A stretch of DNA of 64,000 nucleotides, taken from an uncultured virus (IMG/VR IMGVR_UViG_3300024251_000006) (Duplodnaviria > Heunggongvirae > Uroviricota > Caudoviricetes). The translations under genes were made by a program, and so were the position numbers. The notes under the pieces are model-generated. The model saw only the letters and a list, made by a program, of their open reading frames with translations, made no database searches and had not been told where the DNA came from. Shown in pieces: positions 32,374-48,218 of this stretch; within the stretch, counting starts at the first letter, position 1, and each line of letters starts with the position of its first letter. The stretch is taken from the IMG/VR virus record IMGVR_UViG_3300024251_000006. One strand, 5' to 3'.

Positions 32374-32402
32374 TCTATATCCTATAGTGTACTCTATGTC
32401 AA
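32374..32402 (-). promoter_or_regulatory. Sigma70-type promoter for the minus-strand lysis operon
   Basis: TTGACA-17nt-TATAGA on the minus strand. Confidence 0.65.
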
Positions 32403-32430
32403 CAACAATCGTACTTCCATTGTGAATAAC

Positions 32431-32742
32431 TTACGGCCTTACTGGATACATGGCCTTAAACTTTGGTGATATCTTTCCACTTAGAGAGCAGTCGTAAGCC
32501 CCTCTAACCTCGAATCCCATTTCCTTCATTATCAAATAAACCTTGCGCTCCACGGACAGAGCTTCATCTTTGGCCAAACCTCTTGCAATAACTTGCCAAC
32601 ACTTGACGCCATGCTTCTTAGTCCATACAGATCCTTCTTTACCCTTATGCTGCTCCATTCGGTGGCCCAAACACCCTGTTATTCCTACGTAGAAGTGGTT
32701 CGGAGTCTTACACTCAATGAGATATACGGTATAGGTCTTCAC
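32431..32742 (-). CDS. Stand-alone GIY-YIG nuclease
   Basis: YTVYLI..FYVGIT...RMEQH..WTKKH..E..VRG; AGGAG RBS with GTG start. Confidence 0.85.
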   Translation of the reverse strand: MKTYTVYLIECKTPNHFYVGITGCLGHRMEQHKGKEGSVWTKKHGVKCWQVIARGLAKDEALSVERKVYLIMKEMGFEVRGAYDCSLSGKISPKFKAMYPVRP

Positions 32743-32789
32743 CTACTCCTTATATCATTCCTTTAGAACCTTTAGTTCTTAAAACCAAG

Positions 32790-33271
32790 AACCGCTTCGC
32801 TCGCTCCGCGCTATCGCGCTCCGCTGGAGCGTTTTGATCCGCCAGGACGCAAGTGGCCTGCCAAAGTTAATAGGGCGTCCGTCCTGTTCGTCACGAGATG
32901 CTCGCCAGCAGAGCTCGTATTGGTGGCCAAACGCCCTATTGTTGTATATGCAGTGCCGTCCATGGTTACGTCTAACTTCCCGTCTATCCAACTCACCAGC
33001 TTGCTGGCAGGCGGCACCGCAACTTGTTCCCGGGACGGTGATCTCGGCTGTCCAATAAGCACTCGCCAAGGCCGGAGTAATTACTCGCTAGGCTCCCAGC
33101 TGACTGCAACAGGACCTAGACCAAGCCAGCCTATCCGCCTCACCGTAATTCCGCCCGGGATATTCGTATAAGAGATACCGTCCATGGATTGCTCTTATCC
33201 AACTCACCGGAACAGATTCAGGGCAAGGTAGTCACCTTCTCCCCGGACTCTTACCGGCAGGCGGTATCTCT
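32790..33271 (-). ncRNA. Putative large multi-domain structured ncRNA
   Basis: Consecutive closed helical domains at 33171-33271, 33028-33160, 32953-33017 and 32869-32940; two domains share a core motif; G-U pairs orient it on the minus strand. Confidence 0.6.
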
Positions 33272-33282
33272 GTAAACTTAAT

Positions 33283-33423
33283 CGTGGCGGCGGGCCTTGA
33301 TACCCGCTGTGTTCATGTGCCTATGGCGACCTCGGCTCACCCCCATTCTAGAGTCGCTGATTTCTCAACCACTCGTAGTCGCCCTCGTCGGGGGAATAGC
33401 GTGTCCTTCCACGCCGCGCCACG
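33283..33423 (-). ncRNA. tRNA-like RNA with ~90-nt structured insert replacing the anticodon arm
   Basis: Acceptor CGTGGCG/CGCCACG (7 bp); D-arm GCGT-GGAAGGAC-ACGC; T-arm GCGGG-TATCAAGG-CCCGC. Confidence 0.7.
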
Positions 33424-33444
33424 AAACTCTATCTCTTGACCTTG

Positions 33445-34050
33445 TCACCTTTTGACTTTGGTATCCACCGCGGCAACCTGCGTGATCTTGTGGAACCAAC
33501 CTTTGCGCTCTTCGTCGGTGGCCGACTTCTTCTCGGCGTCGGTTACGGCATGATCATCCATGCTGTCCGGGCTATCTTTGGCCCGCGTGGAGAGATAGAA
33601 GTCGGCGGCTACACCGATCATCTTGTCGACATCGAATCCACCGTGACCGTTATCCTCGATGGGGATGCCGGCACGTTCGAGCTCATGGAACTTGGATAGC
33701 GACAGGGAATCGCGGTTGTCCACTCCGGCGAGCCGCTCCTTGGCCGCCTTGCGGACACGCAGATCCTCTATGCGCTCTGGATCCAACGCTTCCGGCCGGT
33801 AGTTGATCATGATGTTCCTGTCCCGGGTGTCGTTGCCGTTCACCAAGGTCACACACAACTTCAGATTGCGGCTGTCACCTTTCTTACTAGGCGCATCCTC
33901 GGTCTTGTTGATCTTGGCGTAGTTACCGGTGGTCTCATACTCGGCAACAATCACTCCGCTGTACCAGCCATCGTCCCACGGCTTGCGCTCCTCTCTCTCG
34001 AATCCTGCGAATCTACTGACCTTCTGTGTACTGGTTCCTGCTTCAGACAT
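33445..34050 (-). CDS. Putative single-stranded DNA-binding protein (OB-fold, DUF669-like)
   Basis: WDDGWYSGVIV..E..SKKGD.RNLKL pattern; lies near the annealase gene. Confidence 0.5.
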   Translation of the reverse strand: MSEAGTSTQKVSRFAGFEREERKPWDDGWYSGVIVAEYETTGNYAKINKTEDAPSKKGDSRNLKLCVTLVNGNDTRDRNIMINYRPEALDPERIEDLRVRKAAKERLAGVDNRDSLSLSKFHELERAGIPIEDNGHGGFDVDKMIGVAADFYLSTRAKDSPDSMDDHAVTDAEKKSATDEERKGWFHKITQVAAVDTKVKR

Positions 34051-34077: not shown

Positions 34078-34287
34078 TCAGAATGGAATTTCATTGCCGT
34101 CCTCATCTACTAACCGAGGCTTCGGCGGAACTTTGTTACGGGCGTTACGCTGAAGCTCAGCCAACTTATCAGCCCGCTCGAGCTTCTTCTTCTCCTCGGG
34201 AGGAAACAACTCCTGTTGCTTCTCCTTATCATTCACCTCGTGCTGGAGCTTCCATAAGAGGATCTTAGCTTTCCAGTCGTCCATCAT
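34078..34287 (-). CDS. Hypothetical protein
   Basis: ORF ending DEDGNEIPF (acidic, SSB-like tail). Confidence 0.5.
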   Translation of the reverse strand: MMDDWKAKILLWKLQHEVNDKEKQQELFPPEEKKKLERADKLAELQRNARNKVPPKPRLVDEDGNEIPF

Positions 34288-34484
34288 TTCGCATCCTTTG
34301 ACTGTACAGTTCCTAACTGTTGTACAAATCCCCGACGCTTGATGAACTCTAGAACCTTCTCACCGAATTCAGTGGTTATATAGCCGGTTCCATTGCAATA
34401 GGAACATTTGTCCTGATTTCTGGATGTACACCTGTAGCAGTACTGCTCCAATTCCAGATCGTCTTTATCGAGTACGTATGCCAT
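34284..34484 (-). CDS. Small Zn-finger protein (DnaJ-type CxxCxGxG)
   Basis: CYRC...CSYCNGTGYITTEFG. Confidence 0.6.
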   Translation of the reverse strand: MAYVLDKDDLELEQYCYRCTSRNQDKCSYCNGTGYITTEFGEKVLEFIKRRGFVQQLGTVQSKDAK

Positions 34485-35435: not shown

Positions 35436-35885
35436 TCACGCCGTAACTTCCCACCGGATCTTTTTTTGTAACGGGTGCAAATCGACACGTGGTCTGTTTT
35501 CTCTGCTCCACTTTCCACCTCCAGTTTCGCCAAGATTTCTAAACCCAGCACCTCGAAGGCTCGACCCACCTTCTTCTGGTAGCGTGTAAGTGATGAGTTT
35601 TTTGTAGCCCAGCGCCCAAGCTGCACGACGGCATGCTCCATAGAGAAAAGAATTAGCGTTCCTCGACCCATCTGTACAGGTTCGGTTAACTTCAAGCGTC
35701 CATCCGTCATCGAGCATCCTTGCAACTGGCCTTCCGACAATCGCAACACCGCAAATTTCTCTCCCATTGGCTACTCCTATACAGAATTTGGCCCCTGGTA
35801 CTGGCTTATGGTGGCGATGATGCTTGGCCACAAAAGTGTTAGCCTCTTCCAGCGTCACCGGTACCAGTTGGAGACTATTGCTCAT
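35436..35885 (-). CDS. XF1762-family (Mom-like GNAT) putative DNA-modification protein
   Basis: EANTFVAKHHRHH..GVAIVGRPVARMLDDG.TLEVNR.CTDG..NA.SFLYGA..ITYTL. Confidence 0.8.
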   Translation of the reverse strand: MSNSLQLVPVTLEEANTFVAKHHRHHKPVPGAKFCIGVANGREICGVAIVGRPVARMLDDGWTLEVNRTCTDGSRNANSFLYGACRRAAWALGYKKLITYTLPEEGGSSLRGAGFRNLGETGGGKWSRENRPRVDLHPLQKKIRWEVTA

Positions 35886-36087
35886 ATTTCTTTGCACATT
35901 CCTTACAAACTTCTTTGCGCTCGGTGCAGTAGCCACCCATTTCAGTGCCACGATCATCAACTACACTGCGGAACAGCACTATTTTGGCTTCCATCACTGT
36001 CTTACAATCGGCGCAGCGATCTTCTTGTGGCACTTTCATCGTCCGCATCAAGGCTTCATATTGGTCTTTATTCATGTAGGTGGTCAT
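35875..36087 (-). CDS. Small Cys-rich hypothetical protein
   Basis: CADC...CKEC; RBS lies in the end of the upstream gene. Confidence 0.5.
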   Translation of the reverse strand: MTTYMNKDQYEALMRTMKVPQEDRCADCKTVMEAKIVLFRSVVDDRGTEMGGYCTERKEVCKECAKKYEQ

Positions 36088-43600: not shown

Positions 43601-44850
43601 ACCTATCCGGTCAGTCATCGCTCCACCCACCAGCGGATCACCTTGACCGCTACCACCACTAGCACCACCGCCCATTCCCATAGCTCAGTCATGACTTCAC
43701 CACCTTCGTACACCCACAACGCCAAGCCCGCCAGCCAATATCGGGATCAGGCACATCCTTCTCATACTCGCAGCCGTATTCGGCCTCATGCAGGCTTACC
43801 GGATGGTCACAATGCTCGCAGATTTCCTCATCTTCGCCCATATCATGCCGCCTTTCCACAACCGCAATCCCATTCCCGCTCCAGATCCGTTGCCCGGTAC
43901 GCACACGGCTGCTGTACGCATGGCCGGAGATGAAAACACTTGCAACAGGCGTGGGCATGCATCTTAGGCCTGTTCAGGAGTCCCCAAGTACGTTCCAGCA
44001 TCAACTGTAAAGGGTCATTAAACGCATTCCCAGTGCTCTGCAAGCCACGATCGCCTTCTGGTTGACCTTGGACATCATCCACAGGGAGATCGCCCGTCTG
44101 AGCCGTCCTAGCGGCATCCGTAGCATGATCCTCAAGCCACCCAGCCATGTTTAGTTCTCCCATGACGTTATTCCTTCCCCTTGTGCACGCGCATATGCTC
44201 CTTGCACTCGTCGTTCCCATACCGCCATGTCGTCATCCCTGTGCGGCATATACACCCTCGCATCTTCACTATCCACATCCGCCAGCAGGTCTGCCAGGTC
44301 ATGCTCAATCGCCTGATACGCCCGTATTGAGCCTCCGTATCTCATATCCGCCCCTCAGCCTTGGCGATCGCCGTACTCGCTTGGGCATCGGCCACCATCA
44401 ACGAATAGTGTTTCCTAACGTCTAGTTTTATGGTGCTGTGAAGCCTCTCTTGCAGGTCACGCAATGCTTGCAACAGCTCTTTCTCAATCGTACTCATGGT
44501 TGCCTCCTTAAACCGTCAAATCATCCTTTTACGTTGTAAAGCTCAAACCTTAAAGCTCTTGAACCTCTATTCCGACAATTCCCGTACATCCCTCTTGACT
44601 ACCCACAACAGAATTCCCAGCCCAGCCAGTCCTGCCAGCGTGACTAGCAACGTACTCATAGGCGTGGCCCTTCCGCCTTCGCTATTGCCGCATTAGCTAT
44701 TTTCCAGACTGGATCATCCATCGCATCAGGTGTGGCGTACATGGTTTCGATGGTTGCCCGGATGTCCTTCAATGCCAATAGTTCTGGCGATTGATCTTGA
44801 CCACATTTCGGGCAAGGTTCGTATTCCGCTAAATCATCCTCATGCCCCTG
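40611..44850 (-). other. Array of short, often Cys/His-rich early hypothetical ORFs
   Basis: Densely overlapping 50-180 aa minus-strand ORFs with GGAG RBSs; individual boundaries are uncertain. Confidence 0.55.
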
Positions 44851-44900
44851 TCCTGCGGCTTTTACTTGCACTACTCGCTCACTATTGCATACCTTGCAAG

Positions 44901-48144: not shown

Positions 48145-48218
48145 GGGGTCGTCGTCTAGTGACAAGACGCTCGACTGTCGCTCGAAGAACGGCGGTTTGA
48201 TTCCGCTCGACCCCGCCA
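48145..48218 (+). tRNA. tRNA-Asp(GUC), non-canonical
   Basis: GGGGTCG/CGACCCC acceptor, GTCT/AGAC D-stem, CTGTCGC anticodon loop, GGCGG-TTTGATT-CCGCT T-arm, GCCA end. Confidence 0.8.

Follow-up and report, generated by a model that had tools for sequence, protein, structure and literature searches.

A modular array of conserved, probably RNA-level structures and its optional nuclease gene in an uncultured lineage of soil phages

The locus and its fold on the minus strand

We analysed a 64,000-nucleotide (nt) stretch of DNA from an uncultured soil phage (IMG/VR record IMGVR_UViG_3300024251_000006; hereafter the window), and all positions below are coordinates of that stretch. Our subject is a gap of 702 nt (32743–33444) that, read on the minus strand, lies between the gene of a 201-amino-acid (aa) protein (33445–34050, minus strand), modeled with an oligonucleotide/oligosaccharide-binding (OB) fold resembling PrgE or single-stranded DNA-binding proteins (SSB), and the gene of a 103-aa GIY-YIG protein (32431–32742, minus strand). 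Elsewhere the stretch matches PHROG families for terminase, portal, major head protein, exonuclease, Mom-like protein, and methyltransferase, and it therefore belongs to a tailed phage. The original prediction, made from the sequence, had placed a structured non-coding RNA locus on the minus strand of this gap, and the folding supports it: all the stems that it listed are present on that strand at the predicted positions, and the strand is more stable than its shuffled versions.

In minus-strand order, the stem CGUGGCG/CGCCACG closes 33423–33283 (domain T), AGAGAUACCG/CGGUAUCUCU closes 33271–33171 (domain A1), the helices UCCCGGG/CCCGGGA, ACGGUGA/UCACCGU, and CUAGG/CCUAG are nested within 33160–33028 (domain B), a fourth closed domain occupies 33017–32953 (domain A2), and AAUAGGGCGU/ACGCCCUAUU closes 32940–32869 (domain C). 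The minus strand of the 702 nt reached −272.3 kcal/mol, compared with −245.0 ± 6.1 kcal/mol for 20 dinucleotide shuffles, none of which equalled it (z −4.46); for the plus strand of the gap, z was −0.43 and 6 of the 20 shuffles were equal. Folded singly, each domain closed on itself (T, z −3.67; A1, z −4.69; B, z −2.00; A2, z −2.14; C, z −6.03), and the 3′ tail, the last 126 nt, gave z −0.45. A control stretch at 44221–44900, a gap between larger open reading frames (ORFs) of the same window, had z scores of +0.57 and −0.76. This control holds 680 nt without an ORF of at least 70 aa and probably contains small genes.

The gap is non-coding, and no Pfam match at E ≤ 1 was found for any of the six ORFs overlapping the region. 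A reading of the region as a sponge for CsrA was rejected, as its counts of GGA and ANGGA are ordinary and were equalled in 19% and 17%, respectively, of genome windows of the same size.

Relatives were sought with the 201-aa protein, which led to one IMG/VR contig (L001) and 24 metagenome loci. The 3′ end of the gene is included in 19 of the 24 and, with L001, these make up the 20 related loci compared here. The contig of L001 is a complete genome of 63,745 bp with terminal repeats (G002). We call an array complete when it reaches the conserved downstream gene for a membrane protein (n = 15, the window counted). In all related loci, structured non-coding sequence begins within ∼20 nt of the stop of the 201-aa gene, and BLAST of the window region against these loci gave a mosaic of shared and unshared blocks. 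The region is absent from the nearest genome record (G001), and 50,697 cultured-phage records held no match to it by blastn, nor to the 201-aa protein or the 263-aa protein of the same operon by tblastn. Further protein-led searches returned the L001 contig alone among viral contigs and nothing among genome contigs. In the literature, we found no paper matching the core sequences of motif A (below) and none relevant on similar phage RNA arrays.

The RNA had been called previously undescribed, and comparison with known families agrees with this. At the gathering score, Rfam 15 matched nothing in the whole window besides a tRNA-Asp at 48145 and nothing in 18 related loci; at E ≤ 10, positions 32400–33600 gave one chance-level small nucleolar RNA row alone. 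Chance-level rows over all searches comprised sR16 (E 1.8), SNORA52 (E 0.95), and a 12-bit match of the transfer-messenger RNA (tmRNA) model to a T arm in L031. ARAGORN called no tRNA or tmRNA in the region, the tRNA-Asp being its sole call in the window, and no tRNA in the 20 related loci. The likeness to GOLLD, ROOL, and HEARO that had been raised did not hold up, the Rfam models of these RNAs and of OLE having no match in the window at the gathering score or in the region at E ≤ 10. A group I intron was likewise rejected, as the 201-aa gene is whole, no exon is split, and none of the intron models matched. The stop of this gene has the same position in the window and in L001, with or without extra modules.

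Conserved motifs and exchangeable modules

Domains A1 and A2 represent the same motif, here called motif A. Its layout is that of a three-way junction, consisting of stem P1, CGCCUG, the P2 hairpin, UGAGUU, the P3 hairpin, AUGGACG, and P1′, with CGCC pairing with GG-CG around a bulged A. Around 19 core letters are invariant and the stems vary freely. We distinguished two subtypes, A-I with a long P2 that has a conserved internal loop and A-II with the P1 stem GCGGUGC/GCACUGC. Copy 1 of the window (33168–33274, minus strand; 88.7 bits and E 5e-26 with the covariance model R1) is of type A-I, and copy 2 (32946–33024, minus strand; 63.2 bits, E 1e-17) is of type A-II, which is found also in L001, where there is no nuclease gene. 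In 167 kb from 26 sources, searched on both strands, R1 had 34 matches, 30 of them strong (E < 1e-13). Every match falls within the region that follows the 201-aa gene; the window has its two copies and none elsewhere in its 64 kb, and at least one copy is present in all 15 complete arrays. The exact pattern of motif A had 25 matches in IMG/VR viral contigs, all at chance level except those in the L001 contig (two loci), and among the matches listed for bacterial genomes (at least 120) none had the three-stem layout.

Three weak R1 matches (∼16 bits) fall in the first domain of L038, L039, and L040, where an A-like core has CUAGUU in place of UGAGUU. This diverged core is nested within the domain (L038:2738–2900, likewise in L039 and L040; plus strand) and brings these arrays to three A-like junctions each. 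We rejected a small-ORF reading of the motif, since the peptide MDGTAYT is the product of the conserved AUGGACGGCACUGC and the peptide tails are unrelated between loci. The frame opened by motif A's own AUG reaches a stop after 7 codons in L001 and after 17 in L035.

The original prediction had pointed to covariation among homologues as a check, and two modules, motifs A and C, show strong compensatory variation. Among 23 distinct copies of motif A, 96.0% of 425 helix cells pair, compared with 78.0% in column shuffles, of which 0 of 500 were as high, and with 28 to 44% when the 3′ partners were slid by one to three columns. Two-sided changes were seen in 14 of its 20 pairs, including all four in P2 and all four in P3. 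Motif C (32868–32941, minus strand; 89.5 bits with the covariance model R2) is a long hairpin whose P1 begins with GGG and is followed by a large conserved internal loop and by P2, which closes a loop usually begun by CUCUG. The forms of P1 include GGGCGU/ACGCCC, GGGACCG/CGGUCCC, GGGGAAUCC/GGAUUCCC, and GGGCUUC/GAAGCCC, and those of P2 include ACGAG/CUCGU, GUCAG/CUGGC, CCAAG/CUUGG, CCGGG/CCCGG, ACAGG/CCUGU, and GCAAG/CUUGC. Built on nine copies, R2 matched 17 and recovered five held-out copies of three variant types (L038, L001, L036, L037, and L032; E 2e-6 to 3e-4). Motif C is present in 14 of the 15 complete arrays, L044 being the exception. Of 169 cells, 98.2% pair, against 76.8% when shuffled and 35 to 52% when slid, and 7 of 13 pairs have two-sided changes. 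By these comparisons, both A and C represent conserved RNA motifs that are new.

G–U outnumbers A–C among the helix cells by 32 to 3 in motif A and by 7 to 1 in motif C. With G–U so far above A–C, the minus strand is the functional one; it is also the sense strand of the flanking genes, and the pattern fits RNA. The same counts bear on the idea that the structures act in single-stranded DNA, in lagging-strand priming or as an origin or recombination site for the neighbouring exonuclease and annealase genes. Such a role would agree with the position of the region within a recombination/replication module, and the cassettes at module borders (below) loosely recall attC-type sites, but the 32 G–U against 3 A–C cells fit RNA better. 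Furthermore, no integrase or primase was identified beside the array, where most neighbours match no family, and to our knowledge the invariant three-way-junction core of motif A is unlike the single-strand origins described. We therefore rank action as DNA as the least probable of the explanations considered.

No Rfam ribozyme or riboswitch model matched motif A, the searches giving chance-level rows alone. A small three-way junction with ∼19 invariant letters and free stems, occurring in tandem and beside tRNA-like elements and nuclease genes, could nonetheless be a self-cleaving ribozyme of a new kind, by which the operon tail would be cut into pieces, and clusters of ribozymes are known in phage regions with tRNA-like elements and nuclease genes. 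As the fixed letters contain no recognisable catalytic core and no Rfam ribozyme matched even at E ≤ 10, we regard a ribozyme as unlikely.

Modules are gained, lost, and swapped among the related phages, and the locus is therefore an array and not one large RNA. The first module is A-I, and T is missing, in L032, L035, L036, L042, and L043, and L001 has a single A copy with C and the element D (below) in ∼400 nt. The linkers between modules are short and AU-rich. The original wording, "large phage RNA or RNA array", is thus apt in its second half; a single large RNA does not agree with modules that vary independently. One integrated RNA of ∼630 nt, of the GOLLD or ROOL kind and with domains that fold together, would have precedents in the large phage RNAs known beside tRNAs, and it would explain why the whole gap folds well, its minimum-free-energy fold having long-range pairs that enclose all domains. 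We consider it quite improbable, given that modules come and go independently, that L001 makes do with one A, C, and D, that B is unique to the window, that protein genes stand between modules in L029, L045, and L042, and that the GOLLD and ROOL models do not match.

Module T (33283–33423, minus strand) had been described as a tRNA mimic. It is a tRNA-shaped closed domain with a 7-bp closing stem, two unpaired bases, the hairpin GCGUG-GAAGGA-CACGC, a variable core of ∼85 nt, and the hairpin GCGGG-UAUCAAGG-CCCGC, which adjoins the 3′ strand of the closing stem. In a tRNA, the T arm has a 5-bp stem and a 7-nt loop of the form UUCRANY directly before the 3′ strand of the acceptor stem. The description holds in part: the closing stem, a D-arm-like hairpin, and a hairpin with a 5-bp stem in the T position are where a tRNA would have them, the loop of the last having 8 nt (UAUCAAGG). 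The place of the anticodon arm is taken by the ∼85 nt with three small hairpins, and neither ARAGORN nor the Rfam tRNA model (E ≤ 10) recognises the module. L033 has kept both ends of T around a different core, and its first hairpin, with GUGUG/CACAC, shows a compensatory change. The first domain is of another kind in L038, L039, and L044, where CAUGGAUGCUC/GAGCAUCCAUG closes it (z −4.2 and −5.0).

A closer approach to a tRNA lies between two A copies of L031 (L031:1106–1243, plus strand), with a 7-bp acceptor stem and a T arm of canonical form, GGGGG-UUCGAAU-CCCCU. This element lacks a clear anticodon arm, goes uncalled by ARAGORN and the Rfam tRNA model, and is the source of the 12-bit tmRNA-model match on the T arm. 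Its D-arm sequence is, we assume, typical of class II tRNAs, and our reading of the relic is tRNA-Ser-like. The presence of this tRNA-like relic gives the locus a history of tRNA genes.

Module B (33028–33160, minus strand; 8 of 200 shuffles equal to it when folded alone) is a closed domain in the linker between the two A copies, and in L035 two A copies abut exactly where it sits in the window. The 3′ tail (32773–32867, minus strand) has little structure. It contains a diverged D core, UGCGUCCUGGCGG, at 32851–32839, and two hairpins, GCGCGAUAGCGCG (32819–32807) and GUUCUU-GGUUUU-AAGAAC (32792–32775). D itself is the 18-nt UGCAUUCCGGUGGCAUAA, the sequence of which is conserved across loci. Its core pattern had three matches in viral contigs, two of them in GC-rich coding DNA without an A or C motif and thus due to chance. 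Within the searches made, motifs A, C, and D were found in this lineage alone.

Nuclease cassettes and the transcription unit

The GIY-YIG label of the 103-aa protein was confirmed (PF01541, E 1.4e-7, residues 4–53). The protein consists of the catalytic domain alone, lacks a second, DNA-binding domain, and among solved chains comes nearest to UPF0213 BH0048 (E 0.011) and the nuclease domain of SLX1. Of the 15 complete arrays, 7 carry a GIY-YIG gene (the window, L032, L033, L034, L039, L042, and L045), and these genes are of four divergent forms, the alleles of L032, L039, and L042 matching PF01541 with E 2e-9 to 4e-11. Their position is always between the array and the next promoter. All eight complete arrays that lack the gene keep motif A and seven of the eight keep motif C. 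The complete genome G002 has motif A and no GIY-YIG gene within 2.5 kb after the 201-aa gene.

These counts answer the question, raised with the original prediction, of whether homologous loci keep the gene: 8 of the 15 complete arrays do not. They also tell against the ribonucleoprotein (RNP) that it had proposed, in which the RNA guides or regulates the 103-aa protein. A bare catalytic domain without a DNA-binding domain would need a targeting partner, and GIY-YIG genes of four divergent kinds are found at the 3′ ends of arrays, but a patchy and allele-rich pattern is that of selfish nuclease cassettes. With GIY-YIG so patchy among arrays that keep A and C, the gene is best seen as a passenger and not a partner, and an RNP is very unlikely.

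Other genes have settled in the array. HNH genes stand between A-I and C in L029, L030, and L045, with frames that run on through motif C. Those at L029:3883–4266 and L045:734–1087 (plus strand) have no stop of their own, and their C-terminal tails are unrelated. In L042, an RNA ligase gene (PF09414, E 1.7e-13; L042:2333–2989, plus strand) lies between C and D, and a fourth GIY-YIG allele comes after it. SegB of phage T4 is reported to be a GIY-YIG homing endonuclease encoded inside the tRNA gene cluster (PMC2330249), and nuclease genes are reported to sit at exchange boundaries between phages (PMC10448857).

The gene directly upstream of the array had been labelled SSB. Its 201-aa product has no Pfam or PHROG match and belongs to a small family of 21 protein clusters, all from metagenomes. 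For its AlphaFold model (predicted local distance difference test 87.8), the best match was PrgE of plasmid pCF10 (VIA-align Z 8.9, the next being 5.2; root mean square deviation 8.4 Å over 117 residues; Foldseek E 2.1e-3). PrgE, which we take to be an SSB-like protein, was followed by many SSB, RPA, and other OB-fold chains, SSB and RPA at Z 4 to 4.4. On this model, an SSB-like OB-fold protein is plausible. The gene is part of an early recombination operon upstream of the array, with exonuclease-like, Mom-like, 263-aa, 66-aa, and 69-aa genes. Of these, the Mom-like DNA modification gene (35436–35960, minus strand) matched phrog_1384 with E 4.9e-39, and the 66-aa zinc-ribbon protein (34284–34484, minus strand) scored 31.5 bits with PF15777 (Anti-TRAP), just under the cut-off of 32.

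Between the 201-aa gene and the array, we found no promoter-like or terminator-like site, and cotranscription of the array with the upstream operon is plausible. A promoter-like site, TTGACA and TATAGA separated by 17 nt (32374–32402, minus strand), ends 6 nt ahead of the next gene's ATG (32367); it was read directly, the A at the end of its second hexamer having kept it out of a consensus scan. The same site is present in L029, L045, L032, and L043. Given its place before the next ATG, the array and the nuclease gene would close a transcription unit. The spacing of 6 nt between promoter and ATG, an arrangement that recurs in relatives, suggests a leaderless message for the next gene.

An array in this position may act in cis. 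The modules would then protect the upstream message from 3′ exonucleases or gate read-through into the downstream genes; as a variant of the same proposal, motif A could be a tandem riboswitch-like sensor with C, D, and the tail hairpins as its expression platform. The array starts close to the stop of the 201-aa gene in every locus, neither its place nor the order of its modules changes, we found no promoter belonging to it, and U-rich terminator-like stretches follow it in L035, L043, and L001. In addition, a fixed junction, free stems, and a tandem layout are typical of ligand-binding RNAs. On the other hand, simple stabilisers have no need of invariant junction letters, and, for a sensor, P1 of motif A showed no alternative pairing with sequence further downstream, cassettes of varying length separate A from the supposed platform, and no known riboswitch class matches. 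We consider the cis role, its sensor variant included, the main rival; it is possible but on balance doubtful.

Interpretation and comparison with known systems

We favour the reading that the locus is a modular minus-strand array of stable RNAs acting in trans, with the nuclease gene as a passenger, and give this whole reading a probability of about 0.5. Its structural part, a real, modular, and undescribed RNA array with an optional nuclease gene, is very probable, and the trans-acting mechanism, taken by itself, is a tentative proposal with somewhat less than an even chance. Most likely, the array would be transcribed at the end of the early recombination operon. The transcript tail would then give stable RNAs, each closed by a long end-to-end stem, and the modules might be cut free in the short AU-rich linkers. 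We favour stable RNAs, possibly released in this manner, because the modules are stem-closed, the linkers are short and AU-rich, and tRNA-like pieces are interspersed. The conserved junction of motif A may serve as the working surface for a defined partner, which could be a protein or else a small molecule. The locus itself would be a hot spot where selfish nuclease genes (GIY-YIG and HNH) and other cassettes settle between RNA genes, as in T4.

Several points weigh against this reading. The sequence is present in 24 public runs, every one of them soil metagenome DNA, so we infer transcription, processing, and stability. All relatives were retrieved via the 201-aa gene, making the linkage of array and gene one of construction, and they form one narrow lineage with proteins 75 to 96% identical. 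The alignments used for covariation were fitted to the models, which favours pairing, and with such close kinship many of the compensatory changes are inherited and not independent. Module B lacks comparative support, having no counterpart in the 20 related loci, and the consensus structure of D is weak (−3.18 kcal/mol). Finally, the rather fixed order of modules (T, A-I, A-II, C, D), with the same gene always adjoining, suits a cis role equally well.

A bolder version combines catalysis or sensing with action in trans. Motif A would be a new catalytic or ligand-binding junction whose tandem copies cut or gate the operon tail and free a set of stable RNAs, tRNA-shaped ones and junctions, as decoys or sponges against host defences; these defences would be ones that attack tRNAs or rely on nucleotide signals, and the relic in L031 and the RNA ligase in L042 would be traces of this. 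We see little likelihood in this proposal.

Whatever their role, the array yields two RNA motifs with compensatory variation and no Rfam counterpart, and covariance models have been made for both. With fixed junction letters, free stems, and tandem copies, motif A looks as a functional RNA pocket typically does, and it is a good candidate for ribozyme or ligand screens. The RNA modules behave as exchangeable cassettes, and the nuclease and RNA-ligase genes insert exactly at module borders, giving a rare view of the turnover of RNA genes. The comparison also corrects the view of the bare GIY-YIG domain, which is not an obligate RNA partner.

Known systems resemble the array in different respects. 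Like GOLLD and ROOL, it is a long structured non-coding phage region with a tRNA association and a function that is not known, but their Rfam models do not match and it consists of exchangeable modules instead of one conserved large fold. HEARO and the omega RNAs of IscB or TnpB similarly stand beside a small nuclease gene; here there is no IscB or TnpB gene, the nuclease is a GIY-YIG protein and optional (7 of 15 arrays), and Rfam gave no match. Junction riboswitches and small ribozymes, such as the purine riboswitch, hammerhead, and twister-sister, share with motif A a fixed junction, covarying stems, and tandem occurrence, although the core letters of motif A match no known class in Rfam. 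A group I intron with a GIY-YIG gene also puts a structured RNA and such a gene side by side in a phage, whereas no exon is interrupted here and no intron model matches. Free-standing GIY-YIG homing endonucleases have the same catalytic domain and are patchy at one site among relatives, but the 103-aa protein has no separate DNA-binding domain.

The closest analogue is the T4 cluster of tRNAs and stable RNAs with segB, a phage cluster of small structured RNA genes (PMC2330249). The array differs from the T4 cluster in having no recognisable tRNA module, in its new motifs A and C, and in a GIY-YIG protein of 103 aa without a DNA-binding domain. Common to both are tRNA-shaped RNAs of unknown role and a free-standing, variably present GIY-YIG gene. 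Selfish nucleases among clustered RNA genes, as in T4, are thereby seen in an uncultured lineage of soil phages as well.

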